IMG/VR virus record: IMGVR_UViG_3300042291_000667 | Coordinates: 1 to 51,428 of that record | Origin: a virus | Lineage: Duplodnaviria; Caudoviricetes | DNA length: 51,428 nt | Strand: one strand, 5' to 3' | Shown here: piece after piece, positions 18,104 to 46,866 of the stretch | Position numbering within the stretch: the first letter of the stretch is position 1 | Layout of the letters: each line of letters opens with the position of its first letter | Notes under the pieces: generated by a model | The model's input: only the letters and a program-made list of their open reading frames with translations | Told to the model about the DNA's origin: nothing | The model's database searches: none | Made by a program: the position numbers and the translations under genes

Positions 18104-18979
18104 TTACGCGGTCAAATCGACCCTGATAGCCAGGTGAATTGACGTATCGAAGTAAACCGCAGCTGGGCGGATTGCTTTGAGACGCATGTCGTTTTGGTTG
18201 CCTGACACATCGTAGCCCTGCGACAGAGTGTCAGTGACGACATCGATATCGCCAAGGACAACCTTGACAGTACCGGTGGCGTACATCCATTTGTTTGTGC
18301 CTGTTGGCGTCTCTGTGTCACCGGCAGCGTCCGTTGGACCCGCGCCAGTGTAGCCAGAACCGACGACTACGGGGGTTCCACCCATTGTCTGAAGATGATC
18401 TTTACCAGCTTCATGGAAAAGCATTTGGCTGTTACTTGAAAGTAACGATGCGGTATCACGAGTCATATGAATGATACCTTGCTCTCCACAAGGAGATGCT
18501 GTTGCGATTGTATGCTCTAGAAGTGCTAGCGCGCGGCGCGGAGATAGCGCTGTTCCGCTGTTAAGAATAGTCGCTTCAGGGCTAACTAGTGCTCGATTTG
18601 CATGGGTCTCGCCAATACGAACAGTACCGTCCCAGAGCTCTGTTTCGATCGCTTTTTGCGTAATTCCGTCAAGTTGAAGTTTGACGCGCTCAATGTGGTC
18701 AACTCCAAGCAGTCCTAGTGTTGAGCGATACTCCTCAACCTCGATAAAAAATGGTTTGATTTCGTCGTAGCGAGTAGGGGTCGCATTGGAGGCAACAGTA
18801 TAAGAAGTGGTATCTGTGTCGTCCCAATTCTTTGCAGAATAAATGCCAGTGTTCCACTCTTGTGAAAAACCGCGGACCCATTGGTCTTCCTTTGAGCGAG
18901 TATCAGGCTTAACTACGTCAAATAGACCGAACGCCGAAGGCACGATTTTAGGTGCTGTAAATACTCCTGTAAATGCCAT
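18104..18979 (-). CDS. Second capsid protein (putative pentamer/vertex capsid protein)
   Basis: 291 aa directly after the MCP; AIETELWDG, ALALLE, GIIHM, T.GGTPVVVG.GY, WMYATG.V motifs. Confidence 0.65.
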   Translation of the reverse strand: MAFTGVFTAPKIVPSAFGLFDVVKPDTRSKEDQWVRGFSQEWNTGIYSAKNWDDTDTTSYTVASNATPTRYDEIKPFFIEVEEYRSTLGLLGVDHIERVKLQLDGITQKAIETELWDGTVRIGETHANRALVSPEATILNSGTALSPRRALALLEHTIATASPCGEQGIIHMTRDTASLLSSNSQMLFHEAGKDHLQTMGGTPVVVGSGYTGAGPTDAAGDTETPTGTNKWMYATGTVKVVLGDIDVVTDTLSQGYDVSGNQNDMRLKAIRPAAVYFDTSIHLAIRVDLTA

Positions 18980-27231: not shown

Positions 27232-30200
27232 CTATTTCGCCTGTCTGTTTTTCTTAGTTTCGTTGTCATGCTCTGCATATACAGACTCAAGTGGTTGTAT
27301 TCTATATTGTGCAGACGCAGTTGAGAATGTACCAATCCCAGTTTTTTTGTTAAATATCAGATCAGTTGGCTCTTTAAGCTCGAACAGTCGTGTTCCGTTG
27401 TCAGTGGCTACTGCCAGAACAATCGCGATCTTGCCGTCTTCTTTCTCAAGAACACGTCGCTTAACCGTGTAGATCACCGTTATCGTTTTTTCTCCAGAGT
27501 TGTACGTTGTCTCGAGGCCAGCGATGCCTCCGATAATGTTCCCTGTTTCGATGAAGTACTCAAGAGAGCTTACGTAGCTTGGAGCGGCAGACGTTGGTGT
27601 TCCTGCTGAGACGACTGGTCGAATCCCATCTGCAAGAGTGTCAATCATTGTTTCAAGAGCCTCTCTTGCTTCGATCGGCATGTTAGACACTGCCCAAGAA
27701 GCAAGAACAGTTGACATCGATATGTCTGTTGTTTTTCTGGTGCCGTTATCATCATAGTACCACTCAATTAGGTTGTTAAGAGATTCGCGCCACGTGTCTT
27801 CGCTAAGATAGTGGTTTATGACGCCGGCAGGGACATACTGCGGAAGATCAAATTTAGATATTCCTAGCTTAGAAAATCCACTAAATACATTGTTGTCTTC
27901 TGTGCCATACATGTAAGTAAAGAATTTTTCAATTCCAGAGTCATTGCTGTCCAGAATACTCAACGTGTGCGTGAGGCCGCTCTTTGAAACCGCACGGCGC
28001 ATATACTCCGTGGTCATGTCGTACGCTGTCAAGCTCTCAGCGTCACTGCCGCTGTACAAGTATAAGCCACCTGAAGGTTCCTGCACGTAGATGTCCATAG
28101 TCGGATTTTCACTGCCTGGGCGTACAAGTCCAAGAATCTTAGATCCGTCAGGTGCTGGCATGAACCATGTAGTGCCAGTATCAGACTCAAAGTCCCACAC
28201 CTTTGCGACTACGTTCGTAAACGCACGGAACTCAAGTGGGTTTGCGCCCATGCTTAGTTGTTTTTGCTCGATATCTTCAACAAGATCCGCATTCTCTGCT
28301 ATTTGTTTTGCGATTCTTTCTCTATTAGGAACATCACCATGCACTACAAACAGTTCTTCTACTGGAATGCCATACATCGTAGTGATTCCTGACTGACTTA
28401 GCATGTCAAGAATTTCGTTTCTAATGTCTTCAGCTACTGATATGTATGTTAAGTACTCTCCAAAGTCGACGTCATGCTTAAACATAGCTTCATATGCGCT
28501 CCTATAGGTTGAAAGATCTATTTCTGCATAGATGTCGTGATTATTGAAACGCTGGCCGAACTGGTCTTCTCTATTTCCATAAATGTCAAGTCTTCTTAGC
28601 AATTTTTCTGCAGAAAAAACAAATATTGTGTTCGATAGATCATGAGCGGAGTCTTCGCTAGTAAAGTCGCTCAAAGACGTTTTTACATTCATCGGAGTCG
28701 TAAACACATAGTCCGCTGACCCTTTCTTTATGTCAGAGTCAGATGACAAACCAGTGTCTTGATTTCCTTCTAAAAGTCTTGTCATAGTTGAATTTAATCT
28801 ATTCGCAGACATAGTTCTTAGAATTGATTTTGCAGCGGCAGTAGCCGTGTATTCTCTAGGAACGGCAGAAATTCCACCAAACATAATATTAGGATTGTCA
28901 ACGTAATACATCATTCCAGCACGCATATTCGGTACTTCATGCTCAAACCTGTCAATTTCAAGTCTTTGCGCGAGTTCTTTTGCTTTTTCTTCTGAGAACA
29001 TCATTTCAACTCTGCCAGTGTCTGATATTCTAAATTCAATGTCGTCAACGGTGACATTTTCAGTCTTCTTTATCGAATCAAGCAACTCGTCTCTGACTTG
29101 CTGATCTTCAACATTTTTTGCTGGGTCAGTGTACTGCTTGAAGATACTTAGTAGCCTGTTTTCTGCGATTACTTTAAGATCTTCATTAGTGCCTGCTCGC
29201 ACATCTTGCACTCCAGCAGCTCTTAGCGCCGCGGCTATCTGGTCTTCTGTTGCGTCAAGCGGTAGATAGATTCTCACTGTATTGTCGTACGACACGGCCG
29301 ACTCGTCATGAGCATATGGCCTTTCTTGAATTGGTATGTTGTAGTCAGGCACAAAAAATTCTTCGCCGTCTTCATCAACAATTTCGTAGACCGCGCCCGT
29401 CTTTCCCTTGCTGTCGTCTATTACTAGTATGCTGCCTTCATATATTACTGGGCGGTTAGTGTCGGCTTGTGCTGCTGAGACTTTGACAATTTTCGCCGGG
29501 CCTCCTGTCCGAACAACTGTGCCGCTCGCAGGGTCGACATAGAATTGCGCCGGCATTACAGGCTTTTCTGTGATCTCAGCTTCCGAAAGATCGCCACTTA
29601 GTTTTAGAGCTTTTCTCTTTGCAGGATTTATAACATCTTCTTTGTTATTGTTTCGCACAAATCTGATTGGGTCTAGCAGTCTATCTGCTGCCCATGCGGT
29701 AAGCTTGAACCTGAGAGAAAGTTTCTTTTCGCCAGTAGGTTCGTCAACAACGATTGATGCACGCACTTCGAGATCTTCGATATCTCCGCCGTCAACAAAC
29801 GTACTTACAGCAATATCGTCGCTATTCTTAACGTGGTGGATCGCGTCCATTACTGAATATGTTCCATCGATCGCTGACGCAGAAAGCGGCAAAGGATTTT
29901 CTGGAGTGACTTTAGGACGTCCAGTTTGAGTAATTTTCTGTGCACCAACCATTTCAGGCTGTTCTTTTGGTTCATAGACAGGTAGCTCTAGCGGGCTGTC
30001 ATACACGCGACTGATTGCAAGCACCTGCTCGATCGACGATGCAACTGCGGGGTGGAGCATGCCGTTATCGTTGAGATCTCTAATGTCGTCTTCTGTAAAC
30101 CAGCCGAGGTCACTATTCTCGTCATCGCTAATCTTGAGAGAATCTGTCAATGAACTATTGTTAGTAACATCGACAATCATTGTTTCGTACTGCCAATCAG

Positions 30201-33200
30201 GCTCGACAAAGTTTGTGTGCGTTGCAATCGGATCTATTCCTTCTGGATAGACACCAAGTTCTTCTTTTAGCTCTTCATACGCTGTAAGTTGCGGACTTTG
30301 AGCGTGCTTCTTGTCCTTGTGCGCGCCGCCTGGCCATGCCCACTGGCCGCCGCCTGCTGAGATGTTTGCTGAGCGCTTTGCGAGTAGATACTCAAGCGTG
30401 CCGTCTTCTTTGACGCGGCGTAGCAGTGCACCTGCTGCACCGTATCTTCCCCAATAGCGCTTTCCTGACTTGGCGAAGTAATATCCTTCACCAGAATCTT
30501 GTGCGCCTGAGCTATACAAAGGAACAAAGAATGGAAGCGCAGGAGGTTCAAGCGATCCGTTCTTTAGCGCATAGACATCGTCGTATCGGATGTCGATACC
30601 GACAGTGACACCAGCCTCGTCGACATACGTGATCGATCCGCCACGCCATTCTTTGTAGTCAAGTTGAAGCGGTCCGTTGAGATCTTCTGTAGTTTCTTCA
30701 ACTGCTGCAACTGGACTCCACCAAGGAGCATCTTTTCCATACTGTGTAAATGTTGGCTCACCAAGTTCTTCGCGAACTTTATTGATCTTTTCGATAAGAC
30801 GTGAGTTTCGTTCTTTGGACGCCTCGACAATCACCTCAAACTTTTGTCCTAGGACTGGATCATCTTTGTAGTGCTCAGCAAGCCACGCTGCATGTCCGAA
30901 AGCGATTGGGTATATGCCGTTTGCAAGATCTTCTATTGGAACCCACAGAGCGGCCCGTGCATCATCTTGCGCAGTAAGCTCTGTGCCATCGGGTACTACG
31001 TAAGACACAGCGCCAACGCTTACGCCATTGACAAATCGGGGGTCCCAGTCTGGCGAATCTGTCACGCTACCGAGATTCTTACGTGACACTGCGTTTGCTG
31101 CATCAAAGCCGACTTCTTCTTGCATCTCACGGTCGGCAGCTTGCGCGAATGTTTCTCCAGCATCAAGCATTCCGCCTGGAAGAGCATACGCACCGCGGAA
31201 CGGCCCAAACTCACGCTCAATCATTGCAATAAGATCACCTTCATCTGAAGGCTTGATGATTACAGCATCTGACGCAGTCATGTGTTCTGTCTTTGCAAGA
31301 GAAAACTTGTTAGTTGCTTGCTCGACGTCGTCAATATCCAGCGCTTCGTCGTAGTAGGCATCGATGTTTACACCGAGTTCTCCTGCTGCTTCAGCAAGTG
31401 CCTCACTTGGTGCTGCTTTTTTCTTTCTTTCTAGCGGAACTACTTCAAGTGTGATACGCGTGTATGGTATAAATTCGTTATCATCAAAATCTAATGATTC
31501 ATTTACTCTTTCTACAGACTTGACACGGTAGCGTCCGTTTGGAATAATTGATTCTTTCTCAGACTTAACATGGCTGAGCTGGTCTATTGCGTACGCGCTG
31601 TCGACTGCGACTCGAAGAACTACGTGACCAACCTCTAGCGGAGAAATTTGATCTCCAACTTGTTCATAGTCTTCATAGTCAGACGGGCTTCCTTTGATGG
31701 CAGCAGATAAAAACTCATCGAAGTTCGTTAGCTCATCGGCGTTGGTCCACGACGACGGACGAAGAACGACTTCTTGCCCAGGCGTGAGCATGTACTTAAG
31801 CGGATGATCGTCGTCTGTAATCTTCTTATCATAGAATGACAAGAATCTGTCGTATTCTTGAGGTGGATTTCCACTACCTTCCCAGGCGCGCAGGATTCTT
31901 AGAAACGCGGAAGCTGGAGTCATTTCAATGTCGATCAACTCTGGAGTATCAAAGTACCTCGCCAGGTCAGTCCAAAATGCTTTTTCACTTAGTCTGTCCT
32001 TTTGCACTAAGTCAGTTGGAAAGTCTTCTCTCCACTCAGCTAAATCACGCCTAAGTTGCGGCCTTCCAGTTCCAGAAAATGGTGCTGGAGGCAAAGTGTC
32101 TTTAATGTAAGACATTGTCGACGCGAAGATGCCGATAACGGCGTTTTGCACGAGCTCGTCAGTTTTTGCGCGATTTTCAATGGAGTTAATATTCATTTCC
32201 CACATGAACATTGCCGCGTCTTTTGCCTCTGTGTCACTGCCGTCATACTCTTCGTACAGCTTTGCCCAGTTTTCAACGAACTGTGAGCCCATGGCCTGTG
32301 GGCCTTCCGCAACAAGTCTCGCAACAAGTTCTTTGTCACGAGGCGTGTGGTCTGGCGCGGCTCCACGTCCTTCAACAAGAACGTTTGGCATTGAAACATC
32401 CGCGCCAAGAGTTGTAACCATCTCTGTGCTGTTGTCTGGCACTTGTTCTTCAGTAGGCGTCTCTTCTACTGGCTCGTCGAGTTTGTCTGCGTCTGTGAGA
32501 CCAAATCTGTCAAGAATGCTTTGACGTCTGTTTCTAAGCTTCATCTTTAGATCAGCAGCATCTGCAAAGTCACTGATGATTGAATCAACAATTTCGTCAA
32601 TTCTTTCTGGAGATATATTGAGAAGAACCTTTGCAGATTCTTTGACTTGATCGTCAGTCATGTCGCCAAAGATTACAGATGCCTCTGGCGCCTTGCTCTC
32701 GCTGCGAAGCGTGTCAATTTCTCCAACAACGTCTCCGAACATTTTACCTTTGGGCTCACCCTGAGCACGCCACATGAGCGCGCCACCCGGGTCGACTCTT
32801 ATTGGGTTGCCGTCTTTGTCGATGATAACGTTGTCAAAAGTCAGACCTGCAATGTCCCAGTTTGCCAGCCATGCGTCGACAGCAAAGCCCTCTTGCAGCT
32901 TTTCAATTACGCTTCGCTCTGGGTTGTAGCCAAGAACACCGATACTTTCGACGATCGGAGACACAGTGCGTAGTTCACCATTTTTTTCGCCAAGAAGTAC
33001 TTCTACAGCAGGAACTTGCAGTTCTTTGTACAGCGCGGCTGCTAGTGCTTCGTTTTGAGCGTGAAGAGTTGACCTAGGTTCTTTTACATAGTAGTCATTG
33101 CCGTTTTGATCGCGGAACGTTCCACCTTCGTTAGACCCTTTCTTTGGGCCGACTTTTGTCCAGTTTTCAATGTCGTTATACGTAACATTGTCTTCATCTG

Positions 33201-36200
33201 CTTTGACTGGCTCTTGCTCAACGCTTGTTGTTTGATCGATGATAGCAATTCGCATTTTTCTTGAATCACCGTCTGTCGCATCTGTCTTTGACTTGACGAC
33301 AAACGTTGTGCCTCTCGCTAGCACTACTTCAGTTTCAGTGTCGACAGTGTCTCCAAAGTACGCAGCGAGCGAGATTCCTTTAGTTCCGGCGGGCGCTTCG
33401 ATTTCGAGAATAACGCCACTAAGTACGTCAACGTCTCTTGAAAACATTTCGGCCGTGTCATACTCAAGTGATGTTGAAACGAATCCTAAATCTGTAAACT
33501 CTTCACCAACAGCAAGTGAAAATAGTTTTTCAGCTGACCTATTACGTGTTCCACGGTACAAAAGTGTGTTTATTGGCAGCCCTGGAACTTTGTCAATCTC
33601 TTCATCGAAAGCCTTGATGATAGTGTCTAGGTCTGACAGTTCAACGTTGTGCTCTTCTTCTATTCGACTTGCTGGCTTAGTTCCTCTTAGGCGATAGTTA
33701 GTTGCAACCCACATGTTCGGGTCTTCTTGGTACAAGCGCATAGCTGCGGCATTTGCATCATTTACGTCATCTCCAAGAGCGTTGTCGTAGATCTCTCCAA
33801 GATCTTCTTGGTACTTTTTAGTATTTTTTACCGGAGTTAGCGTTTCTTTTGGCTTAGCAGAATAGAACTCGTCTTCAAAGTTAGAATCTACTTTTTCAAT
33901 AACTACAGGAACTTGAAAGTCAGGATTATTGTCAAACGCAGCTATTAGTCTGTGGTGACCGTCATACACACTGCGCGTGCCGTCTTTCCACTCACGGACG
34001 ATTATTGGAGTAAACACTCCTTCGCTTCTTACTCGCTGATTAAGACCGTAGGCGTTTGACTCTCTTTGGTTATTTAGATATTCTTCTGATTCGCCGTCTA
34101 GCAGCGAAAGTCCGTAAGCGTTTTCTGCTGGCAATCCCATTAGTTCTTGCGCAGATATGAGCTCATCGCCATCGTCTTTTTGCGGTGTTTTTTGTGGGTC
34201 AAGAAACTTTGGATCGACTTGGTCTTGTATAAGACTCAAGTCTTTTGTAGTCAACGCTTCGGGAGCCTCTGCTTCAACAGACGCAGAACTTAGGTCTTCA
34301 GTCTTGTTTTTGTCTTTTTCTTTTGGAACTACGACAACTTTGATTTTATCGCCTTCTCGAGAAATCACTTTAAAGACAGTGTTCCTTGGAAGAATGAATT
34401 CAGCCTCCATCTCCGAGAAAGACTCTGGATTACTGTAAGCTTCGTCGTCTTCGACTTTACTTCCATTTGCCGGGTCGACAAAAAACCCTCGAGACCCTTT
34501 AGGAACAACAATTTCAAGAAGATATCCGGCTTTCCCCTTAAACTTCTGCGCAACACTCTCAACAATTGACGTTGAAGAATACGCCACGTTGTTGAACTCA
34601 TCGCCCGGCTGTAGACTAGAAAGCATGTCGATGAGCGGCTCATTTTTTCTTCTCTTGTCTACTCCACGATAGACGAGCATGTCTTTTTTAGTCTTTGGAA
34701 ATAAGCTGATAAGCTTATCTAAAGTTTTTACTACAGCATTGAACCATTTTTCATCTCTTTTTGTCGCGCCTTCTGCATCGCTTTTCAGTCCCGCTAACCA
34801 TGAGTTTACTTCTTCAGCTCCACCACCTGTGTAGTAGTACGCACCGTCAAGGAAGTAGTCATCGTACGACTGGTTATCTTCCCACTTGTAGATAAACTTC
34901 GCGTACTGACTGCTCTCGCGCCAAAGATCATCTTCAATTTCTGACAAAAACTGAGCTGGATCTTGTATCGGCTTTACTTTGTTCCAGCGTGCTAATTCTG
35001 CTATGTCTTCAGGAGCCTCGGGTGCCCCTTGCGGGGCCTCAACTTTTGGGAAGTTGCCGCCGCCACCACCATCGTCACTAGGCGTAGGTCCAGTTCCACC
35101 GCCGTCTGGATCGCCTCCGCCATCATCGTCGTCATCGTCTGAGCGATCTGATTCCTCGCCTGACCACGTTTCTTCGTTTCTGCGTTGGATCATGTTGTTA
35201 TAGATCTCAAGCTGCTGGTCGAAGCTTGGCGGACGTGGGTCATTGCCCTTGTCCTCATCTTTCTTCTTCTGAGCGTCGTTTCTCACGTCTGCCCATGGCG
35301 CCTCGTCCTCACCGATAACGTCGAGTGTTGACGCTGTGCGGATCATTCGAGCAACACCGGGACCCCAGTTGCCTTTCTTGACAGCTCCCTGTTCACGCGG
35401 GTCGAGGTCAAAGCGAACGAATACACCGAGCCAGTCTGTCTTGTTGTAGTCAAGCACGCGACCGGCGAATCCGTTTTTATCGCGGACGCGCATTCCACGG
35501 CGGATAAGAATTCCATTCTTTGACGTACCCATTGGCTCGCCGACCTTGTTAAGAAGCTCTGGCGGTGGAAGATGTTCGCTTAATCTACGTCCATACTTTA
35601 CTTCTTCAATCGCGTCGCGAATTGAATTTACATAGTCTCTAAGAGCTTCAATCTCTGCGGCATCTGGGTTCTTCGACGTTAGAGGAACTTCTGGGACAGA
35701 GTCAGCAACTTCCGCAAGCTTTTCATACGCATCATCGAGCGTTATGTTTCCTGCAACAAGATCGCGTAGTACTTCGTTCACGCCTTCTCTGACGTCAGCT
35801 ACAATGTCCTTGCTTAAAGAGCGCTTCATGTTGCTCGCTGCTTCGTTGAACATGTTGTCGACTTCTGCGAATCGATCACGAATAAATTCCAAGTTAAATG
35901 AGCCGGCTTCAACAAGTTGTGGAGTTTCTTCAACAACTTCGCTGACTTGCTCGTCTGTCATTGGTTCATCAACCGATGGCATATCTGGAGCTGTTACAAT
36001 GTCTGCTGAATCGTCCTGCGCTGTTTCAACAGTTCCAGGCTCTTGTGCAGCTTCACGTCCGAAGATTGCTGGCAGTTTCTTTTGCGCGTCTACAACGCCA
36101 TCTTCTGGATCGCTAAACTTCTTAGTTTCGATGCCAGTAATGGTTTCATCAATGAGATCATTGAGCGCAGGGTTACCGCTAAAGATCACACTGAGCTTCT

Positions 36201-39200: not shown

Positions 39201-42200
39201 CGTTGACTACACGAACAGCACCAAGCTGCACTGGCTGATTTGTGCTGAAGTCGCCCTTGTCACGGTCAGGGAATCCAGTTGTTTCGTAGTCAAAGAAAAC
39301 GAGTTCAGTGTTGCGAAGTCTTTCGCGTACTTCTTCCCAACCAGAAGCTCCGTCAATCAGTTCAGCAGCTGATCCGGTAAATGCCGGTGCCTTAGGCTCA
39401 AACGGACGCTTTGGACGATGAAGAGCTGGCTTGTCTCCCTTTGGAGGAATTGGAGCTCCGCGGAATACATCAATGACGGTTCCTTCGTTCCATTCTTTGC
39501 GCTGTGTTTCGTGCCCTGGGAAGTATCCTTCAACGCTGATCTTGCCCTTAGGCGTGTCAGCATCGTGAAACACGCGCTCAATGGTAAACGAATCGCCTGC
39601 TGTGATATCTTCAGGCTGAAGATCGCGTGCTGCGTAGCCCATGCTTGTCGCCAACGAAGTTGGCTCGCCAAGAATGTCTGCGTCTGGATTGACTGTGTCA
39701 AGGCCATAACGGCTAAGAATCTGCTCACGGCGTGCAATCAAAATACGCGATACTTCGCGTGCTTCGTCTGGATCTTTAATCGCTGACGCAACCATGTCAA
39801 TGATTCGTGATGGAGAGATGTCAAGAAGTCGGCGTGCGCTACGCGCAACATCGTCTTCTGTCATGCCGCCAAACACTACCGCGGCCGCTTTAATTCTTGC
39901 CAAATCTGGATCACGCATTGTGTCGAGTTCTGTAACGTCTTCGTCGAACCATGGCTTAGAGCCGCCTGTTGCTCTCCACCTAAGAGCACCACCGTTGTCA
40001 ATACGGAACGGTTGTCCGTCTGAGCCAGGAACAATATTGTCGTATTCCATGCCAGTGACATCATAGTTAGAAAGCCACGCATCAACCGCAAAACCATCAC
40101 GAACTTGGCTCATAAATTCTTCATTGCGAAGCATGCCGCGGAAATTGCCCTCGTCAGAGATAATCGGGCTAACTAAGTACAGCTCACCATCGCGCATTCC
40201 AAATCCCTGTGCAGGTGATGGAAGCCCAAGCTCATTATAGAACGCGGTCGCAAGTGTTTCATTGTCAACATGTGACTGCGAGCGGCCTTTCTTAATGTAG
40301 TACTTCTTACCGTACGGATCTTTAAAGTAGCCGCCTTCATTTGAACCAGCCTGTGAGGCAACCTTGACTTCTTTCCACATTGAAATGTCGCCGTAGTCAG
40401 GGACGAGGTTTTCTGTTGTAGGTTCATAGTCGGTGTTTTGGCCTCTTGAAGAAACCTGCTTGATTCTGACAATATGCTTTTCTTGAATGCTGCCTAGTTT
40501 GATGAACGAAGACTCAACAGACAAGACTTCAAATGTGCCGTACCCGAAGTGTTCTTTTTCATTCTCAAATGGTGAAATGTGATGAGCAGAAACTGTCATA
40601 CCGTCGCCGGGCTCAAGTACGAAGTACACTCTGTCGAATCCCTTGTTTCGAGAGTCTTGCTGCTCTGGATCGCCCTTTGTTACATCGCTAGATGTGAATG
40701 ACCTCGGGTCCATGTCAAAGACTGAACCCTTTGTAATGTACATGTCGAGTAGTGCGCTATTGTCCTTGGAAACTCCGACGTATCTGTAGAGTTTTTCTAC
40801 GTTTGGTCGCGCGGCCGCAGCAACAAGTCTTGCAAACGCAGCTGCTGTTGTCTTCGAGTTGAGATCATCTTCTCCATCAGCAAGACGTTGACGTCCGATC
40901 ACGAATTCAGGATATCCGCCGTAAGCACCTATGAGTTCTTCATATGCGTCTTGCGCAGCAAGCTCGCTACCTTCTGCGCGAACAAGCGCTTGAAATACTC
41001 TAGCTCTAAAGTGATCGTCGCTGTCAGTCAATCCTTCAAAGTCGATGCTGTCGCCGCCGTCAGTTGACATGAGCATTCCCCAGACGCCTCTAAATGCGTC
41101 ACGATCAGTATCACTTGGGCTTGTTGCAAGTGGAAGATATTGATCTAAAAACGTCCCCATGTTGACGCTTTGTTCGTCAGGATCATTGTCTTGGATCCAC
41201 ATAAGTCTGTCTGCAATGTCGACAAGCTTATCGTTGGGCTCGACGAAGTTTTCTAGTGATCTGACCACGCGAGACGCGGAATCTGGATTGGCAAGCATTC
41301 CGTTTAGAATTTTTGCTTGGTCGATTTGACTAGATCTGCTTGAGTCAGTCATGTCAATAATTGACTTTGAGAAACTGTCAATTGGCGCGTTGGCGGCATC
41401 TCTTGCTCTAATAGCTGATCGTTCCAGCGCTCGGTCTGTGTTTTCTTCTCCGCCGACGCCTGCGTCGTAGATGCCAGCAAGAATTACTTCAACATCACCA
41501 ATTCCTAATCGAGACACAGCGTCGTATATTGCCTCGGCACTTACATACTCATCAGCTTTGTCGAACTTGAGCAGTCCGTACCCTGTTGCTGGTGCACCTG
41601 TTTCTTCGTCTGGGCTAATCGCGTTCTTGAGTGCCCACAAAAGTGTGATTGCACTATACTTATTAGCAAGAACTGCTGGATCGTCAGTGTAGTCAGAACT
41701 CTGTACGTCGTCAGCTGCGCCCTTTGGCACGTATCGATCGAAGATATTGATTTTGTAGAAGCCTTCACCAACTGCGGGAAATGCGTCGTCAAACACAGCT
41801 TCACTAAACACACTTGGCGCATCAGTTGACTCAATGGTCTGACTGTCGTCAATTTCACCTGGAATAGACGCAGGCACTTCGTCGCTTGGGCGCTCGCGGT
41901 ACACGTTTGCCATAAGCTCGTCGACGCGATCTTCTCCAGCTGCGATGGCGATTGCATCTCGAAGGTCTTCTGGAGAGCCAAAGAAACGAACTACTCCTGG
42001 TTCAACAAAGCGAGCCTCTACTTGAACTGCGTTTTTCGAAGTCCACTGATCTACGTCTTGTTGATTTTGTACGTAATCTTCGCCGCCTTCGGCATAGAAA
42101 TCTGGAAGATCTACGCGGTAGCCAGCGAGCATCTTATCGCCTTGTTTCTGCGCGGCTGCGTAGTCCTCGGGTGACAGACCGAGCATGTTTGCAAGATCAG

Positions 42201-45200
42201 TGCTGGCGATTGAGCTGTCATCAACGGTGACTTCAACTCCTGGATACCCGCCGTGCCAGTCACTACCTGTTAACTCTGCAGTGAATCCGTAATCTTCTGT
42301 GTAGCGTCGAATTGTTTCTTCAACGTCTTCGGCGTAGCCGATGTCAAAGATAAACTTACGAGGTCCGCGGCGCATTCCTTCGATAAGAGTCGATGGATCT
42401 GACTTAAATGCTTCAGCAAGGTCCTGGTCATATTCATAGTCTTCAAGACTGACATAATCTCCTCTACCTGTGCGTGAAAAGTCAAATGCCTCTCCAAGAG
42501 ATCTAACCCAGACTTTCTTTGCTTTCTTATACTTGCTAAAGAATTGAGCTACGGCCTCATCAATGTCTGACTGCGGCATCGGCATAGTAAATACTGATGT
42601 GATTGAATTGAATGCTTCGTCGAACTGGTTAATCGCGCTTCGTGCGAGCCCTCTGTCTCCGCGCTCAACTTCTTCTTCGACACCGAGTCCGAACAAGTCT
42701 TCGAAGTCAAGGTTGTACACTTCCATCACTTTTGAAAGAGCGGTGAAGAACTCGCGAGCAGCCGCTCTACGGTACGCCAAGTCTTCTGCAAGCTGCGCGG
42801 CTGCGCCAGTTGCTGGAAACTCGTCAACCTTGTCGCTCTTACCTGACTTCTTGAGCTCTGGAATCATCTTTCCGAGAGAATCAGCAGCGGCAAATCGATC
42901 AACAAAATCTTGAGGAACATCGGAGTACTTGTAGATTCCGCCGCCCTTACCATCCTTTGATCCGAACTGTATAAAGAGGTCTTGTGTCTGAGGATCATAC
43001 GCAGCGCGATTGACAGCTGTGCTTCCCTTAGTATCAATTTCTTGCAGGCCTGTTTCTTTAGCGCGTGCGACTGGTTGTGCTGCAGGTGCTGCTGGAGCAG
43101 GCCACAGTGCGTCGACTATCTGATCAAGGTCTTCTTGCGGAAGATTGACGATGTCGTCAAGTTCCGTCTGCTTGAGCTTGCTGTCGACTGGCTTTGCAAA
43201 CTTGTCGAGGAAGAATTCTTTTTCTGCGTCAGCGGCGTACTCAAAACCGCGAAGCTTTGGACGGTTGTTCTTTGGATTGACAGTGATCTCAATCGGCGTA
43301 ACAACGCGAGGCTTTTCGTGGTAGAGGAATGAAACGTCTTTGCCGCTTGCAATAGCGCCTTCAATTGCAGAACGGAGTCCGTCTTGGTCGATTGATGTTA
43401 AATCAACTGGACCTTCCTGTGGTTTACTTTCATACGTATCAAGCAGCTGCTGTACGCCAGTGTTTCGTGGGCTGTCTTGGACAAACTTCTTAAAGTCTGG
43501 GTCGTTAGCAATTTTCTCGCGGAAGTTTGTTGCATTTTGCTGCGCATTAGCGATTTCTTCGTCACTAAGCGTGGTGAGGACAGGGCGATCAATTTGTCCA
43601 CTTGGCTTGTCTGGGCCGTAAAGATCATCGACGAAGAAGTTTTTTTCTTTTCCACCGTCAGACATGTCGAGCGCTGTAACAAGTTCTTTTCCTGTCTTAG
43701 GGTTAACCCAAAGACGCTGAGGATCAATTATACGATCTTTGCCTTTGTAGTTAACGCGAAGCTTTTGCTTCTTGTCCATCGCCATTTCAACGCGGCGACG
43801 ATTTAAGTCTACAAGAGGATCAGTATAGCTGTTGAAGTCGACGGTGTCTGGTTCTTGACTTACTTCGCCAGAGATAATGTTGTTGAGAGTCGAAAAGAGA
43901 TCATCTTTATCGAGATCTCCGCCACCGTTGTCATAGTCTGCTACTACATCACCAATTTTTTGCGCTTGATCTGATGAAATCTCACCGGCTTCTTCGAGAC
44001 CACGGATCTTTTGCAAGAACTCGGTGTCAGAGACTCTGCCATACACAAAGTCTTCAGCTGCAGAAGCTGCGTCTATTGGAGCTTCAGCGGCCTGTGGAGC
44101 TTTAGAAGCTTCAGGCATCGCTGAGATTTTGTCAACATTGTACGTGCGCTCGTCACCATCAGTAACTGACCAACCTGTGACGTTGCGATTTCCGTTTTTC
44201 TTGTTGTCGTAGATCTTCGAAGGCTGGAAAACAATATCTTTAGCGCCGTACTTAAAGCGAATGTTGTCGCCCTTGCTGATGACAGCATTAATTGCGTTCT
44301 CGAGCTGTTGACGTGACTCAAACGGCAGAAGGTCGCGTGTTACGCCTGTAGACGGACGATACTTAGGGACCTCTCTTTGCTCACTGCCGCCGCCTGTACC
44401 GCTGACAATGCGGAAGCCGTCTTTTTGAGCGTCATAGATTCCGTCACCGTCTTCTTCGTCAAAGTAAATAGTCTGACTTCCGTCTGACATTCTTACGTTG
44501 CCGCTTTGTTTGATCCAGCGAGTTTCTGTTATACCAGCGACAGGGTTCTTGTCACCAGGTGCACCGCGATCTCCGAGTGGGATGTATCTGGCCGCTTCAG
44601 CTGCTTTTTCTGCAGCGGCAGCTTTTTCATTTGCCTCTGCGTTGATCTTATTAACTTCAACCATGTCGGCATCGATGGCGTCGATCGCATCGTTCCACGA
44701 CGGAAGACCTCTTGCAACATTAATGTTGTCACCGTACGCTTGGTTAGCGACACCCCAACCCATGCGCCAGACTTCATACGTGCTGCCGTCTGTTCCTACG
44801 CGCTCCGTAATTGTGTGTGCGCTGTAGACACTGTCTGTATTTGGTTGGTGCGAGTACGACAACTTCGACGACCCGTAAGCAGTCCAACCAGGGCCGCTCT
44901 CACCGGGTTCGAGAGGGCCAGAGACACGGCTTGATGGCGGCTTTGGCTGAGTTGGGCCACCTGTCGGCGTCTCAGGCAGCGATCGGAGGTACTTCTTTTC
45001 GTGCTCACCATCAACGAATGCACCGCGATAGAAAACTGACGGTACTTGACCTGGTGTGCTGTCGACAAACTGTTCCTTCAGGAACTCCATCATGTCTGAG
45101 TCAGACGGATCAATCGGCTCAGCCTTGATCTCGTCATCGGGAACGGTCATCTCAGCTATGTAGTAGCTACCATCTTCATTGCGACCGTAAAGAACGTCAC

Positions 45201-46866
45201 CGTCACCGGCTACTACAATGATTTCAGAATTTTCTGGAAGCTTGTCTGAATACTCGCTGGCTGGCTTTCCTTTTGCACCATCGAAGATGTCGTTGACAAG
45301 ATTGCCACCTGTCGGCGTCTCAGGCAGCGATGCTTCTTCAGACATCGACTGAATATCAGCGAGTTTTATTTCGCGCTCTTCGCCGTTTTCGTCTGTGCCC
45401 TTTACTGATGTGTCAGTAACTTCTGTCGGCTTGAGAGCTACGTCTTGGCCGTTTACGTTAAAGCGAATACCTTTGTCATCACCAACTGCGTCTTGAAGCT
45501 GCTCGGCAAACGAGTCAGACTCTTCACGAAGAATTTGTGGCTTGTCGGCTGCGTTCTTGCGGCCCTTTGCTTCTTGCTCAGCAACCCAGGCTTTTTGCGC
45601 TGCGTCGTCACCGTCGAGGCTGTTGTACTTTTTAAGATCAGCTTCGTAGTCGTTTTGGTCGCGACTAATAACGTCTTCTACATCTGCCCATGTGTCGACA
45701 GCAGGGAAATCTACAAAGTCAAGTTCTTGACGAGCGGGCTGCAGTTGTGGCTGGCGGTGTGTAGCCCGACCTGCGGAACCAGGACCAACATTTTCATAGT
45801 CTTCGGTGTGGTTGTATTTACCGACACCGTTGACGACATAACCATCTGGAGACTCCCATTGAGTAGCGTATTCTTTGCCGCTCGAGTCCTTTGCCATTTT
45901 TACTGGCTTCCAACCGTCAGGAGCTCCAGTCTTTGATTGGATCATCTGCGCCCCTGATACGAACACGTCATCAGGCTGCACTTCGCCCTGGTCAGGAAGA
46001 CCTTCAAGTCCTTCTTGAGGAATGATTGCCTTTACTGCAGTACCTTTGTTTGACGGTACCTTTACAATTTGACCGGCAACATTAATTCCATTGCTTCCGC
46101 GCATGAGCTCAACCTCGACAAGGCCACTATTCGCGTCTGCTTCTGTACCACGGCCGACAACACGACCGGAAAAGCTGCGGAATGAGCCATCGACCATCTT
46201 CATCTTGAATGAAAAGCCACCGCCCATGAATGCGAATCGACCATAGCGGTCACGGCGCTGAAGCTTCGCGCGCATCGAACGCGCAGCGCGAGAGTTGCCG
46301 CCAACAAAGCTCAAAAGACCAGCAACAAGAGGAACTGGAGTATAAGTGCGGACGATTTCAACGTCGCCAATGTCAATCGCTGCAGTAATTGGTACAAGCT
46401 GTGGACCAGCAGCGATAAGGCGAGCAAATGCGTGTTGACGTTCGATCGAACCTGGCTCTAACGAGTGAGCACTCGCAACAAGAGCTCTAATCGAATCGTC
46501 GACAAGTGGATCTGATGCGACCCATTGTGCGCGAGCAGAACGAAGCGCGCTAGCCGACATCGCGTGAGGCGCTGTTGAGAATGGGTGCCCGATTGGAAGC
46601 AAGTCTGAGTTTTCAAGAGATGAAACAGTTGCTTTTGAGATAGTCGCGAGCGAGATAAACGAAGACAGCGCGCGAAGAGCTGAGAATGATCGAATCTCTT
46701 GCGATGAGTTGCTTGTGTATGCTAGGCTACGGTCAACTACAGCCAGTGCTGCTTGGCGTGTAACTTGGCGCTCTGGTCTAAATTTAGAGTTTGATTTATT
46801 TACGAGTGCAATGGCTTCTGCACGAAGCTGATCAAGCCACTTTGTGTCACGTCTACGCTTGCTCAC
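27232..46866 (-). CDS. Giant polyvalent protein (WYL x4, KTSC, ART x4-5, kinase-like x2, DEDDh exonuclease, SF1 helicase, ParB-like, Nudix x2)
   Basis: Uninterrupted 6544-aa ORF with many recognisable catalytic motifs; GTGA overlap with the upstream gene and a 2-nt gap to the downstream gene. Confidence 0.92.
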   Translation of the reverse strand: MSKRRRDTKWLDQLRAEAIALVNKSNSKFRPERQVTRQAALAVVDRSLAYTSNSSQEIRSFSALRALSSFISLATISKATVSSLENSDLLPIGHPFSTAPHAMSASALRSARAQWVASDPLVDDSIRALVASAHSLEPGSIERQHAFARLIAAGPQLVPITAAIDIGDVEIVRTYTPVPLVAGLLSFVGGNSRAARSMRAKLQRRDRYGRFAFMGGGFSFKMKMVDGSFRSFSGRVVGRGTEADANSGLVEVELMRGSNGINVAGQIVKVPSNKGTAVKAIIPQEGLEGLPDQGEVQPDDVFVSGAQMIQSKTGAPDGWKPVKMAKDSSGKEYATQWESPDGYVVNGVGKYNHTEDYENVGPGSAGRATHRQPQLQPARQELDFVDFPAVDTWADVEDVISRDQNDYEADLKKYNSLDGDDAAQKAWVAEQEAKGRKNAADKPQILREESDSFAEQLQDAVGDDKGIRFNVNGQDVALKPTEVTDTSVKGTDENGEEREIKLADIQSMSEEASLPETPTGGNLVNDIFDGAKGKPASEYSDKLPENSEIIVVAGDGDVLYGRNEDGSYYIAEMTVPDDEIKAEPIDPSDSDMMEFLKEQFVDSTPGQVPSVFYRGAFVDGEHEKKYLRSLPETPTGGPTQPKPPSSRVSGPLEPGESGPGWTAYGSSKLSYSHQPNTDSVYSAHTITERVGTDGSTYEVWRMGWGVANQAYGDNINVARGLPSWNDAIDAIDADMVEVNKINAEANEKAAAAEKAAEAARYIPLGDRGAPGDKNPVAGITETRWIKQSGNVRMSDGSQTIYFDEEDGDGIYDAQKDGFRIVSGTGGGSEQREVPKYRPSTGVTRDLLPFESRQQLENAINAVISKGDNIRFKYGAKDIVFQPSKIYDNKKNGNRNVTGWSVTDGDERTYNVDKISAMPEASKAPQAAEAPIDAASAAEDFVYGRVSDTEFLQKIRGLEEAGEISSDQAQKIGDVVADYDNGGGDLDKDDLFSTLNNIISGEVSQEPDTVDFNSYTDPLVDLNRRRVEMAMDKKQKLRVNYKGKDRIIDPQRLWVNPKTGKELVTALDMSDGGKEKNFFVDDLYGPDKPSGQIDRPVLTTLSDEEIANAQQNATNFREKIANDPDFKKFVQDSPRNTGVQQLLDTYESKPQEGPVDLTSIDQDGLRSAIEGAIASGKDVSFLYHEKPRVVTPIEITVNPKNNRPKLRGFEYAADAEKEFFLDKFAKPVDSKLKQTELDDIVNLPQEDLDQIVDALWPAPAAPAAQPVARAKETGLQEIDTKGSTAVNRAAYDPQTQDLFIQFGSKDGKGGGIYKYSDVPQDFVDRFAAADSLGKMIPELKKSGKSDKVDEFPATGAAAQLAEDLAYRRAAAREFFTALSKVMEVYNLDFEDLFGLGVEEEVERGDRGLARSAINQFDEAFNSITSVFTMPMPQSDIDEAVAQFFSKYKKAKKVWVRSLGEAFDFSRTGRGDYVSLEDYEYDQDLAEAFKSDPSTLIEGMRRGPRKFIFDIGYAEDVEETIRRYTEDYGFTAELTGSDWHGGYPGVEVTVDDSSIASTDLANMLGLSPEDYAAAQKQGDKMLAGYRVDLPDFYAEGGEDYVQNQQDVDQWTSKNAVQVEARFVEPGVVRFFGSPEDLRDAIAIAAGEDRVDELMANVYRERPSDEVPASIPGEIDDSQTIESTDAPSVFSEAVFDDAFPAVGEGFYKINIFDRYVPKGAADDVQSSDYTDDPAVLANKYSAITLLWALKNAISPDEETGAPATGYGLLKFDKADEYVSAEAIYDAVSRLGIGDVEVILAGIYDAGVGGEENTDRALERSAIRARDAANAPIDSFSKSIIDMTDSSRSSQIDQAKILNGMLANPDSASRVVRSLENFVEPNDKLVDIADRLMWIQDNDPDEQSVNMGTFLDQYLPLATSPSDTDRDAFRGVWGMLMSTDGGDSIDFEGLTDSDDHFRARVFQALVRAEGSELAAQDAYEELIGAYGGYPEFVIGRQRLADGEDDLNSKTTAAAFARLVAAAARPNVEKLYRYVGVSKDNSALLDMYITKGSVFDMDPRSFTSSDVTKGDPEQQDSRNKGFDRVYFVLEPGDGMTVSAHHISPFENEKEHFGYGTFEVLSVESSFIKLGSIQEKHIVRIKQVSSRGQNTDYEPTTENLVPDYGDISMWKEVKVASQAGSNEGGYFKDPYGKKYYIKKGRSQSHVDNETLATAFYNELGLPSPAQGFGMRDGELYLVSPIISDEGNFRGMLRNEEFMSQVRDGFAVDAWLSNYDVTGMEYDNIVPGSDGQPFRIDNGGALRWRATGGSKPWFDEDVTELDTMRDPDLARIKAAAVVFGGMTEDDVARSARRLLDISPSRIIDMVASAIKDPDEAREVSRILIARREQILSRYGLDTVNPDADILGEPTSLATSMGYAARDLQPEDITAGDSFTIERVFHDADTPKGKISVEGYFPGHETQRKEWNEGTVIDVFRGAPIPPKGDKPALHRPKRPFEPKAPAFTGSAAELIDGASGWEEVRERLRNTELVFFDYETTGFPDRDKGDFSTNQPVQLGAVRVVNGEVVDRFNMHMSPGEPLGLWSRENLKRDGGVILTDEWLSEQPGKDDVHRQFTEWAGENAIFGAHNAPFDIGVFNGVIADAGIDYTPAGVIDTLKLSQQFMPSKSQKVKPDANGPLNHKLKTLVEFFGGTLEGWHSADADAEAVGNVLDGIIRAINDKPLPDLAKDAQKYERDKENFDRAKKEYAQALLDYETAKAVAAAWNCGGGGIKASGDPYGEDCNVPSIDDIIKRATPDESDFVDPDGLHSGPTDGSSSPLPDRGADDLEDYIIPFPESVDPADLFKGEKFTPTLQQQNIIAAWLTGEDVVVLAKAGTGKTTTLTLGARVIQGLEPSKRLLYIAYNRSVADEASAKFPPNTVVKTSDAVAYNFMRLQYPDLFKKFKSDTALFNKDDIAKFLGLSKVKIGDEVYEASEIASMVQDTVFKFEISSNPMLNMGHVFEADVPSELSDVVFSAAQTYWSDILNPDGKMPFAFNEMKKLWSMSKPDFSGTDSGVDRSIDVVMLDEAQDTNDAVGSVVLNQSIQVIMVGDPDQAIYQFNGAKDQLQNAVAPYRLPLTESWRYGPEIGGFANRFLALKERVHGVETNRGIGRGPAGQVLPAGTMTDAEAVIVRSNAGAFKDILVEIEAGRTVGVTKSFYADLKGFIEAAEWLKAGGASSGKKRPVRMPEDLRGFRSWKDVAEEAAKGEKSDLGTKTGILIEIVEEEGIEGLYDLLGKIQQIESVSDAKKSMGGDTGTAARSEFDLPDELGVGAYGQLTDGISFSIDPVGVIITGKKTFPYKETLKKVADWNGKSKVWKISASTDASRRAALEKLQNLIRDLEGYGSTPEARAGQGIDVVVSTAHQMKGLEFGRVRVGTDFRGPRKDKTTGEIIWPNISEFNLAYVTATRAINALDPGSLDWIYDSTSANDESSFPELAGQEAEVEAEEQDATPVPEVTDESGDGGAEEPPAITTAPGGDGPSDDEQAVYDALDTVFYAIQDAADTKGNKDFGAKAGINALIDMRKKLSVIFSGNPALNDLIDETITGIETKKFSDPEDGVVDAQKKLPAIFGREAAQEPGTVETAQDDSADIVTAPDMPSVDEPMTDEQVSEVVEETPQLVEAGSFNLEFIRDRFAEVDNMFNEAASNMKRSLSKDIVADVREGVNEVLRDLVAGNITLDDAYEKLAEVADSVPEVPLTSKNPDAAEIEALRDYVNSIRDAIEEVKYGRRLSEHLPPPELLNKVGEPMGTSKNGILIRRGMRVRDKNGFAGRVLDYNKTDWLGVFVRFDLDPREQGAVKKGNWGPGVARMIRTASTLDVIGEDEAPWADVRNDAQKKKDEDKGNDPRPPSFDQQLEIYNNMIQRRNEETWSGEESDRSDDDDDDGGGDPDGGGTGPTPSDDGGGGGNFPKVEAPQGAPEAPEDIAELARWNKVKPIQDPAQFLSEIEDDLWRESSQYAKFIYKWEDNQSYDDYFLDGAYYYTGGGAEEVNSWLAGLKSDAEGATKRDEKWFNAVVKTLDKLISLFPKTKKDMLVYRGVDKRRKNEPLIDMLSSLQPGDEFNNVAYSSTSIVESVAQKFKGKAGYLLEIVVPKGSRGFFVDPANGSKVEDDEAYSNPESFSEMEAEFILPRNTVFKVISREGDKIKVVVVPKEKDKNKTEDLSSASVEAEAPEALTTKDLSLIQDQVDPKFLDPQKTPQKDDGDELISAQELMGLPAENAYGLSLLDGESEEYLNNQRESNAYGLNQRVRSEGVFTPIIVREWKDGTRSVYDGHHRLIAAFDNNPDFQVPVVIEKVDSNFEDEFYSAKPKETLTPVKNTKKYQEDLGEIYDNALGDDVNDANAAAMRLYQEDPNMWVATNYRLRGTKPASRIEEEHNVELSDLDTIIKAFDEEIDKVPGLPINTLLYRGTRNRSAEKLFSLAVGEEFTDLGFVSTSLEYDTAEMFSRDVDVLSGVILEIEAPAGTKGISLAAYFGDTVDTETEVVLARGTTFVVKSKTDATDGDSRKMRIAIIDQTTSVEQEPVKADEDNVTYNDIENWTKVGPKKGSNEGGTFRDQNGNDYYVKEPRSTLHAQNEALAAALYKELQVPAVEVLLGEKNGELRTVSPIVESIGVLGYNPERSVIEKLQEGFAVDAWLANWDIAGLTFDNVIIDKDGNPIRVDPGGALMWRAQGEPKGKMFGDVVGEIDTLRSESKAPEASVIFGDMTDDQVKESAKVLLNISPERIDEIVDSIISDFADAADLKMKLRNRRQSILDRFGLTDADKLDEPVEETPTEEQVPDNSTEMVTTLGADVSMPNVLVEGRGAAPDHTPRDKELVARLVAEGPQAMGSQFVENWAKLYEEYDGSDTEAKDAAMFMWEMNINSIENRAKTDELVQNAVIGIFASTMSYIKDTLPPAPFSGTGRPQLRRDLAEWREDFPTDLVQKDRLSEKAFWTDLARYFDTPELIDIEMTPASAFLRILRAWEGSGNPPQEYDRFLSFYDKKITDDDHPLKYMLTPGQEVVLRPSSWTNADELTNFDEFLSAAIKGSPSDYEDYEQVGDQISPLEVGHVVLRVAVDSAYAIDQLSHVKSEKESIIPNGRYRVKSVERVNESLDFDDNEFIPYTRITLEVVPLERKKKAAPSEALAEAAGELGVNIDAYYDEALDIDDVEQATNKFSLAKTEHMTASDAVIIKPSDEGDLIAMIEREFGPFRGAYALPGGMLDAGETFAQAADREMQEEVGFDAANAVSRKNLGSVTDSPDWDPRFVNGVSVGAVSYVVPDGTELTAQDDARAALWVPIEDLANGIYPIAFGHAAWLAEHYKDDPVLGQKFEVIVEASKERNSRLIEKINKVREELGEPTFTQYGKDAPWWSPVAAVEETTEDLNGPLQLDYKEWRGGSITYVDEAGVTVGIDIRYDDVYALKNGSLEPPALPFFVPLYSSGAQDSGEGYYFAKSGKRYWGRYGAAGALLRRVKEDGTLEYLLAKRSANISAGGGQWAWPGGAHKDKKHAQSPQLTAYEELKEELGVYPEGIDPIATHTNFVEPDWQYETMIVDVTNNSSLTDSLKISDDENSDLGWFTEDDIRDLNDNGMLHPAVASSIEQVLAISRVYDSPLELPVYEPKEQPEMVGAQKITQTGRPKVTPENPLPLSASAIDGTYSVMDAIHHVKNSDDIAVSTFVDGGDIEDLEVRASIVVDEPTGEKKLSLRFKLTAWAADRLLDPIRFVRNNNKEDVINPAKRKALKLSGDLSEAEITEKPVMPAQFYVDPASGTVVRTGGPAKIVKVSAAQADTNRPVIYEGSILVIDDSKGKTGAVYEIVDEDGEEFFVPDYNIPIQERPYAHDESAVSYDNTVRIYLPLDATEDQIAAALRAAGVQDVRAGTNEDLKVIAENRLLSIFKQYTDPAKNVEDQQVRDELLDSIKKTENVTVDDIEFRISDTGRVEMMFSEEKAKELAQRLEIDRFEHEVPNMRAGMMYYVDNPNIMFGGISAVPREYTATAAAKSILRTMSANRLNSTMTRLLEGNQDTGLSSDSDIKKGSADYVFTTPMNVKTSLSDFTSEDSAHDLSNTIFVFSAEKLLRRLDIYGNREDQFGQRFNNHDIYAEIDLSTYRSAYEAMFKHDVDFGEYLTYISVAEDIRNEILDMLSQSGITTMYGIPVEELFVVHGDVPNRERIAKQIAENADLVEDIEQKQLSMGANPLEFRAFTNVVAKVWDFESDTGTTWFMPAPDGSKILGLVRPGSENPTMDIYVQEPSGGLYLYSGSDAESLTAYDMTTEYMRRAVSKSGLTHTLSILDSNDSGIEKFFTYMYGTEDNNVFSGFSKLGISKFDLPQYVPAGVINHYLSEDTWRESLNNLIEWYYDDNGTRKTTDISMSTVLASWAVSNMPIEAREALETMIDTLADGIRPVVSAGTPTSAAPSYVSSLEYFIETGNIIGGIAGLETTYNSGEKTITVIYTVKRRVLEKEDGKIAIVLAVATDNGTRLFELKEPTDLIFNKKTGIGTFSTASAQYRIQPLESVYAEHDNETKKNRQAK
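44956..45331. repeat. Exact 28-bp direct repeat pair (44956-44983 and 45304-45331)
   Basis: gccacctgtcggcgtctcaggcagcgat occurs twice, 348 bp apart and in frame, encoding SLPETPTGG. Confidence 0.9.

Follow-up and report, generated by a model that had tools for sequence, protein, structure and literature searches.

The linear virus record IMGVR_UViG_3300042291_000667 (51,428 bases, ~30% complete; the whole of it is called the window below) carries on its minus strand, at 27232..46866, a single open reading frame (ORF) for a giant protein of 6544 amino acids (aa), with a mass of 720 kDa, an isoelectric point of 4.55 and two Cys residues only. With somewhat better than even confidence, we propose that this protein is packed in the prohead, cut by the maturation protease, ejected together with the DNA and active in the host before the phage genes are expressed. 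A first-pass annotation of the window had suggested the same course of packaging, cutting and injection. This reading gains indirect support: the gene has a fixed slot among the head genes, the protein shares an RDxxGRF motif (RD motif) with the maturation protease and carries a candidate cleavage motif, its C-terminal module is fused with MuF elsewhere, and an analogue was detected in virions.

The gene of the giant is encoded and translationally coupled within the head operon: it starts with a GTG that overlaps the stop codon of the Dps-fusion gene upstream, and 2 nucleotides (nt) separate its own stop from the 542-aa gene. The gene order on the minus strand is portal, Dps fusion, giant ORF, 542-aa gene, maturation protease, major capsid, connector, tape measure, Dit and fibre genes. 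This agrees with the single, coupled ORF of the first-pass annotation as well as with its order of portal/Dps, giant and maturation protease, except that the 542-aa gene (25601-27229) intervenes before the protease and had not been mentioned.

An ORF of this size might also be an assembly artefact or a decaying read-through fusion. Contigs of four other runs covered 30 of 30 bins of the giant in each run, and the seven indels listed in them net to whole codons. An independent IMG/VR contig encodes an intact allele of 7669 aa. Compared with it, the giant has an overall ratio of nonsynonymous to synonymous changes (pN/pS) of 0.17, and none of 22 segments exceeds 0.56. Of 838 candidates scored in a protein search over lengths of 3599-11452 aa, 16 were returned, namely the giant itself, seven close and intact relatives (5795-7986 aa; best alignments at 72-95%), seven proteins at 36-43% and one helicase-only match. 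In favour of an artefact, no single contig of the other runs spans the entire gene, and two joints skip lengths that by themselves break the frame (104 and 3469 nt; the intervening letters are not known). A joint in the contig comparison that seemed to go back proved to be a 32-nt repeat shared with the 542-aa gene. As the giant is covered in all four other runs without a net frameshift, has independent alleles of 5795-7986 aa and shows a pN/pS of 0.17, we conclude that the ORF is real and not chimeric. The misassembly considered in the first-pass annotation is thereby effectively refuted, and we give it next to no probability.

The slot was followed across phages using a portal scan of IMG/VR, in which at least 557 of 600 stretches were confirmed and 80 were kept, the loci being partly redundant. 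The N-terminus of the giant lay directly behind portal/Dps in 58 of the 81 portal loci examined. Among the remaining 23, 22 end less than 2.3 kb from the portal and one has a motif-bearing ORF of 1224 aa; every sufficiently long portal locus examined has the slot filled. Isolated Microbacterium, Arthrobacter and Gordonia phages have slot genes of 1479-3113 aa, annotated as hypothetical or as DNA helicase; these members include A3Wally gp85, Pumpernickel gp82, Cece gp68, Atuin gp71 and Racecar gp78, all bearing the RD motif, as well as Phendrix gp66. A profile of the C-terminal module reached 2370 clusters at 50% identity. Ninety of the 148 new top matches to it are at least 2000 aa long, and these giants contain the N-terminal motif region in 76 cases, the kinase-like module in 80, the exonuclease in 19 and the helicase in 9. 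The N-terminal motif region was also found in 43/46 slot proteins with a profile built from those same proteins. By these matches, the slot family is large, occurs in freshwater and soil actinophages, and has hundreds to thousands of metagenomic relatives. The first-pass annotation had not recognised this combination of size and domains from described phages. The protein is nevertheless not singular, since the same-slot homologues and architecture variation that were sought were found both in IMG/VR and in isolated phages, the latter with members of 1.5-3.1 thousand aa (kaa).

The constant occupation of the slot would also suit a protein packaged mainly as a structural inner-head or ejection component (scaffold, core or conduit), with the enzymes being passengers or being aimed at co-infecting phages. 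Consistent with this, A3Wally gp85, Cece gp68 and Phendrix gp66 gave no Pfam enzyme match, and acidic linker together with unnamed modules makes up much of the length of the giant. However, slot proteins span 1.5 to 8 kaa and their inner modules are freely shuffled, unlike a fixed structural part, and the catalytic residues are conserved. A mainly structural role is thus unlikely in our opinion.

Several other arrangements were seen in the slot. ArdC-N plus MPTase-PolyVal was present in 2/13 slot proteins scanned, and DnaG primase also in 2/13. In four contigs (L089-L094, L098-L099; G006, G007, G008, G024), two giants of ~3.1 and 4.0-4.7 kaa stand in tandem, both containing the N-terminal motif region, and some of these bear DnaG primase or ArdC-N/MPTase. 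A slot protein of 4795 aa (L097:108-14495, G015) combines ArdC-N and MPTase-PolyVal stretches, two of each, with a Tc-38 domain, and shares only its N-terminus with the window giant.

The N-terminus of the giant resembles its head neighbours: the Dps-fusion and 542-aa proteins each contain a small domain homologous to the giant's first ~100 aa (hhalign 87.8%; E 2e-9 and 1e-8). The basic leader (aa 1-182, 46321..46866; this and all further features of the giant lie on the minus strand) ends in a candidate protease site and is followed by an Arg-rich region (aa 183-300, 45967..46320), a candidate head-targeting signal with the RDxxGRF motif at aa 205. The motif recurs twice in the maturation protease, and in eight GenBank phages it was found 19 times in head-module proteins and not once in the other proteins examined.

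A second motif, [LIV][TV]A[AS], occurred 109 times in the head proteins of these eight phages (20.7 expected, a fivefold enrichment) and 9 times in their non-head proteins (7.3 expected). Its looser form lies 15-32 aa ahead of the RD motif in 40/68 giants, compared with 5.6% of random windows. In the window alone, the motif is over-represented in the tail fibre too (3 vs 0.56), and the loose pattern is not significantly enriched in the portal or the protease. By analogy with head processing in T4 and phiKZ, motifs of this type are probably sites of the maturation protease. In T4, head proteins, Alt included, are processed by the prohead protease. A variant of the site also lies inside a Gly-rich loop between the only two Cys residues, Cys2757 and Cys2773 (38467..38664). 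In 34 non-redundant members with this loop module, both Cys are present in 34/34 and no further Cys in 30/34, at lengths up to 7.4 kaa. None of the isolated phages examined has this module. The candidate motif is found within the loop in 28/34 members, with close variants in the other six, and is not enriched in the rest of the body of these giants (30 vs 42 expected). The positions of the candidate sites suggest removal of the leader and one internal cut, not the release of single domains.

The same N-terminal features bear on another explanation, that the protein is a late product which remains inside the infected cell, processing DNA and modifying the host as one fused complex, and is no part of the virion. 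Several of the functions are commonplace inside cells, namely exonuclease, superfamily 1 (SF1) helicase, ParB-like domain and, in relatives, primase; the GenBank labels of Atuin gp71 and Racecar gp78 read simply 'DNA helicase'; and 720 kDa is large for cargo. On the other hand, most giants do without the helicase (present in 9 of 90) and the exonuclease (19 of 90), while the head-type N-terminal motif is almost constant, the leader and RD motif are common to head proteins, and replication enzymes would generally be unexpected in a late head operon. A purely intracellular protein is, in our judgement, quite unlikely.

Virion evidence comes from other phages. Gordonia phage GMA2, which has the same capsid family, encodes orf10 (L236:7981-10632) as the gene after the portal. 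This protein is one of three listed from purified virions by mass spectrometry, together with portal and capsid, at 29.4% coverage (Table S5 of PMC4524720). Like the giant, it has an ART-like (ADP-ribosyltransferase-like) domain and the slot behind the portal; unlike it, it has 883 aa. As it lacks the fixed ends, it should be called an analogue and not a clear homologue. GMA2 orf10 itself ends in an Acb1/2H-like domain (E 8e-4) and is a candidate for a packaged enzyme acting against cyclic-oligonucleotide-based anti-phage signalling (anti-CBASS). The gp129 protein of phage fHe-Yen8-01 shares the kinase-like (E 1.5e-69) and ART modules with the giant, and its GenBank remark reads 'phage particle associated'. 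One copy of the giant would occupy ~870 cubic nm, which is small beside an assumed head of 70-85 nm.

For packaging followed by ejection, we suggest the following course. The leader and the Arg-rich RDxxGRF motif, common to the neighbouring head proteins, would bring the giant to the prohead or DNA. The protease would cut it near aa 182 and 2764, giving pieces of ~283 and 417 kDa; in the free virion, a disulfide between the two Cys would keep these together, and the reducing conditions of the cytoplasm would release them. In the host, the WYL-like/KTSC modules, the exonuclease and the helicase may act on the incoming genome, by protection or processing, the ARTs and kinase-like modules could modify host proteins or DNA, and the Nudix modules could strip ADP-ribose-type signals; cassette turnover would follow the host defences. 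A further generalisation is possible, though we hold it as doubtful: a MuF-independent cargo system of freshwater and soil actinophages in which an RDxxGRF address and a head-protease site load a polyprotein of 0.2-0.9 MDa into a long-tailed virion, the loop cut gives a disulfide-linked two-chain payload freed by the host cytoplasm, and cassettes between the fixed ends are swapped among co-existing phages in the manner of a polymorphic arsenal.

A number of observations weigh against packaging, cutting and ejection. The protease pattern was chosen after viewing the sequences, and the eight phages are mutually related. In the window, both candidate sites depart from the strict pattern, the loop site by a Lys at position 2 and the leader site by a Gly at position 4. 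The loop module is absent from 88 giants, 70 of which have no Cys at all. One GMA2 capsid peptide (Table S5, PMC4524720), placed by eye, spans an uncut site of this type. The literature searched holds no account of the candidate cleavage motif, and the consulted part of PMC7150772 contains no cleavage data. The virion data concern analogues alone, not RD-motif proteins or the window phage: GMA2 orf10 has neither the RD motif nor matches to the fixed end modules and its ART match is weak (16.4 bits), and gp129 sits at a different genomic place, the basis of its GenBank remark being unseen. Pieces of 280-420 kDa would need to unfold for tail passage. The tail genes of the window comprise Dit and tape measure with no sheath match, and the tail looks non-contractile; NAD-ADPr genes were reported in only 16% of siphoviruses vs 60% of myoviruses in the part of PMC9503650 consulted.

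The domain analysis predicts that the giant strings ~15 enzyme and nucleic-acid-binding modules on one chain. Pfam cut-offs were passed by KTSC, the RNase_T exonuclease, the UvrD helicase, two ADPrib_exo_Tox and two NUDIX domains, while ParB_N stayed below the cut-off (E 0.0015). The domain positions of the first-pass annotation agree with the re-mapped coordinates within ~200 bases, and the Pfam-backed part of its domain list stands; the kinase-like modules and the HYE-ART rest on motifs and weak matches. The catalytic residues of the enzyme modules are intact in the sequence.

Four WYL-like repeats (aa 451-515, 853-922, 1020-1090 and 1162-1232; 43171..45516) were recognised by mutual profile matches. 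Family-wide, 15/40 repeats match Pfam WYL at E<=0.05 (best E 2.8e-5), and in the PDB they match WYL proteins at weak E of 0.2-1.4, alongside Sac7d. Next come the KTSC domain (42832..43044; Pfam E 1.4e-9), conserved unnamed core modules defined by family profiles (aa 1690-2020, 40807..41799), a divergent R-S-E ART-like module a (40447..40809; hhalign and catalytic motif), a HipA/CtkA-like kinase-like module 1 (39667..40404; weak family assignment) and a DEDDh 3'-5' exonuclease found by Pfam with its motifs intact (38713..39324). Behind the Cys loop lies the UvrD-like SF1 helicase (36457..38379; phrog_1967, E 1e-70), in which Walker A/B and motifs III-V were found and the pattern as written for motif VI gave no match. 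A conserved small module, by eye only a candidate SH3-like one, closes the fixed core (35257..35664). The second half contains Alt/VIP2-type ART 1 (34297..34854; R4067, S4098, E4154, E4156), which is an optional cassette, a ParB/Srx-like cassette with the weak ParB_N match (33832..34254), Alt/VIP2-type ART 2 (33202..33753; R4438, S4464, E4511, E4513), kinase-like module 2 (32467..33189; 44% identical to module 1) and the divergent R-S-E ART-like module b with an N-terminal partner module (31417..32454; catalytic motif and profile comparison). These are followed by Nudix 1 (30697..31374), whose Nudix box is complete and whose closest matches are NadM/NudE ADP-ribose pyrophosphatases, Nudix 2 with a degenerate box (29998..30666) and a fixed C-terminal module pair (28297..29949).

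In the kinase-like modules, K, E, D, N and D are invariant in 47 sequences. The family links are weak (HipA_2 in 3/47 members, CtkA at E 0.84, Atlas 0.91-0.92), and PDB sequence and profile searches gave nothing significant; a HipA/CtkA/PI3-4-type kinase fold is thus a weak assignment. A kinase-like module joined to an ART also occurs in Gammaproteobacteria phages of 86-96 kb (8 records; e.g. L237:4282-10722 and L238:7039-10755). The distal module of the C-terminal pair keeps an H-Y-E triad, with H5976, Y6053 and E6126 each conserved in at least 85% of 121 sequences, and is predicted to be an ART of the PARP/DarT clade. One of 38 members matches DarT (E 0.00095) and 0/30 smaller homologues do; the DarT family search over the window contig itself gave no match, no PDB profile match was found for the module, and in Atlas it fell into unnamed clusters only (recognition 2034).

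By hhalign, the divergent ART-like modules a and b match one another at 98% and the VIP-type modules at 77-93%, and the R, S, ExE catalytic motif is kept in all four. For module a against ART 1, single-sequence hhalign failed and alignment-to-alignment hhalign matched; a PDB sequence/profile search with module a gave no significant match. The Pfam ADPrib_exo_Tox matches might indicate a Trojan horse, in which VIP2-like ARTs target protists grazing on infected bacteria, an idea published for 24 freshwater phages (PMC6802176, consulted in part). The Cys-bracketed loop also resembles two-chain toxins. Nevertheless, the VIP-type modules match the phage Alt-like ART family phrog_802 (E 7e-11), the ARTs are embedded amid DNA enzymes and Nudix modules, the same slot is present in soil phages, and no binding or translocation component was found among the 34 window sequences scanned, which also distinguishes the giant from the binary VIP2/C2/iota toxins. 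We consider an attack on protists very improbable and retain the bacterial host as the favoured target of an injected protein.

Alignment of the alleles indicates that the giant has fixed ends and inner cassettes (ART, Nudix, ParB, WYL-like) that are gained, lost and exchanged. Nine close alleles contain 1-5 VIP-type ARTs, 0-2 copies of ARTb and 0-1 ParB. The ParB cassette is missing in 6/8 close alleles. In distant phages it reaches 72-87% identity, against 45-54% for the helicase, which points to recent transfer of this cassette between phages. An optional module of 116 codons (44932..45331), with a perfect direct repeat of 28 nt on either side (44956-44983 and 45304-45331), is absent or replaced in other alleles, and in one low-depth contig 741 bases corresponding to ART 1 are removed in frame. 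The N-terminal variable region of another allele (L085, G001) has a tandem duplication of a ~282-aa unit in place of the repeat-flanked module.

The neighbouring genes also lie on the minus strand, unless stated otherwise. The portal (48212..49945) matches phrog_776 (E 2e-101). It is followed by a Dps/ferritin protein fused to a leader-like domain (46863..48149), recognised by a family profile match and by homology to the leader of the giant; the small domain is common to the 542-aa protein and the giant's leader, and there are five candidate protease sites. Similar Dps-type fusions occur behind the portal in many relatives, and the protein may be a packaged Dps. The 542-aa head-module protein (25601..27229) has DUF5824, repeated Cys-rich modules and five candidate protease sites; its counterpart in DSL-LC01, which was assembled from a lake metagenome and for which an actinobacterial host is predicted (PMC10611076, consulted in part), is annotated as a high-potential iron-sulfur protein. 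The maturation protease of 1525 aa (21027..25604), with its two RDxxGRF motifs, is divided into three genes in DSL-LC01 and into two in Atuin. The major capsid protein (19077..20900) is 79% identical to the DSL-LC01 capsid and 48-55% identical to capsids of large Microbacterium, Arthrobacter and Gordonia phages; PDB sequence and profile searches with it gave no significant match. The 291-aa gene after it (18104-18979) belongs to phrog_779 and possibly encodes a separate pentamer protein of this capsid family. Within the tail module, two ORFs of 88 and 235 aa on the opposite (plus) strand (5629-6602) have lower GC content and no Pfam, PHROG or NCBIfam match. No transfer RNA was found in the window.

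Freshwater Actinomycetota phages are abundant, yet this slot is named only 'hypothetical' or 'DNA helicase' in databases. The slot family may serve as an inventory of effectors that are probably injected and are actively exchanged, with a candidate address and cleavage code that is testable in isolated phages, and it suggests another way to read the ART genes described as a 'Trojan horse' in lake phages. It also raises the question of how a siphovirus would deliver several hundred kDa of protein.

Among known systems, polyvalent proteins are the most similar to the giant in the part of PMC5512222 consulted: they exceed 2000 aa, combine disparate enzyme domains, have a virion/packaging or late-gene context and mosaic orthologues, and share ART, kinase, ParB-like and helicase domains, while ArdC-N, MPTase-PolyVal and primase occur in same-slot relatives. 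A seed domain of the class, the Alt-like ART, is present in the window allele, ArdC-N and MPTase-PolyVal being found in relatives only. By its sequence, the giant resembles a packaged polyvalent effector, with packaging, cleavage and injection as the inferred part. In contrast to polyvalent proteins, the window allele lacks MPTase, ArdC-N and the DarB methylase-SF2 dyad and has a HipA/CtkA-like kinase-like module, a WYL-like/KTSC array, fixed ends and candidates for a targeting motif and a cleavage loop; the actinophage head-slot family is absent from the description in that part of PMC5512222. The slot family, its motif and its loop have no account in the literature searched, which was mostly open literature with the PMC5512222 supplements, possibly listing members, outside its scope. 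The novelty claimed in the first-pass annotation therefore holds for the anatomy, not found in that literature, and not for the concept of polyvalent proteins, which was already published. New at the sequence level are the absence of MuF, the RDxxGRF motif shared with the head protease, the head-enriched motif and its place in a Cys-bracketed loop.

MuF polymorphic toxins and MuF-VIP2 fusions (PMC12226406 and PMC7302621, both consulted in part) likewise have ART cargo among head genes, and the C-terminal module of the giant is MuF-fused in 6/30 of its smaller homologues scanned, in other phages. However, Pfam scans gave no match to the MuF domain PF04233 in the giant, its C-terminus is fixed, its variation is internal, and it has many enzymes per chain. 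The next gene encodes the 542-aa protein of head-type domains and apparently no small immunity protein. Judging from the missing MuF domain and the fixed C-terminus, the giant is not a MuF toxin.

T4 Alt (PMC5512222 and PMC9503650, in the parts consulted) is an R-S-E ART and a precedent for a packaged and injected one, although it is one ART of ~680 aa in a myovirus and the giant combines four modules of the R-S-E type with a predicted H-Y-E one. The giant also fits the packaged ART/Nudix theme already set out in the consulted part of PMC9503650. In phiKZ, many head proteins are cut by one head protease, and the helicase gp203 is processed and packaged (10.1101/2025.11.23.690004, consulted in part); these are separate proteins of a jumbo myovirus, likened here by description and not by homology. 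Cluster EK/Burro phages also have giant actinophage genes, whose proteins of >4,400 aa were called the largest in any actinobacteriophage in 2020 (PMC7302621); compared by description only, they belong to podoviruses and have few recognised domains. The giant alleles of 6.5-8.0 kaa are 1.3-1.8 times as long and surpass this stated record of 4.4 kaa.

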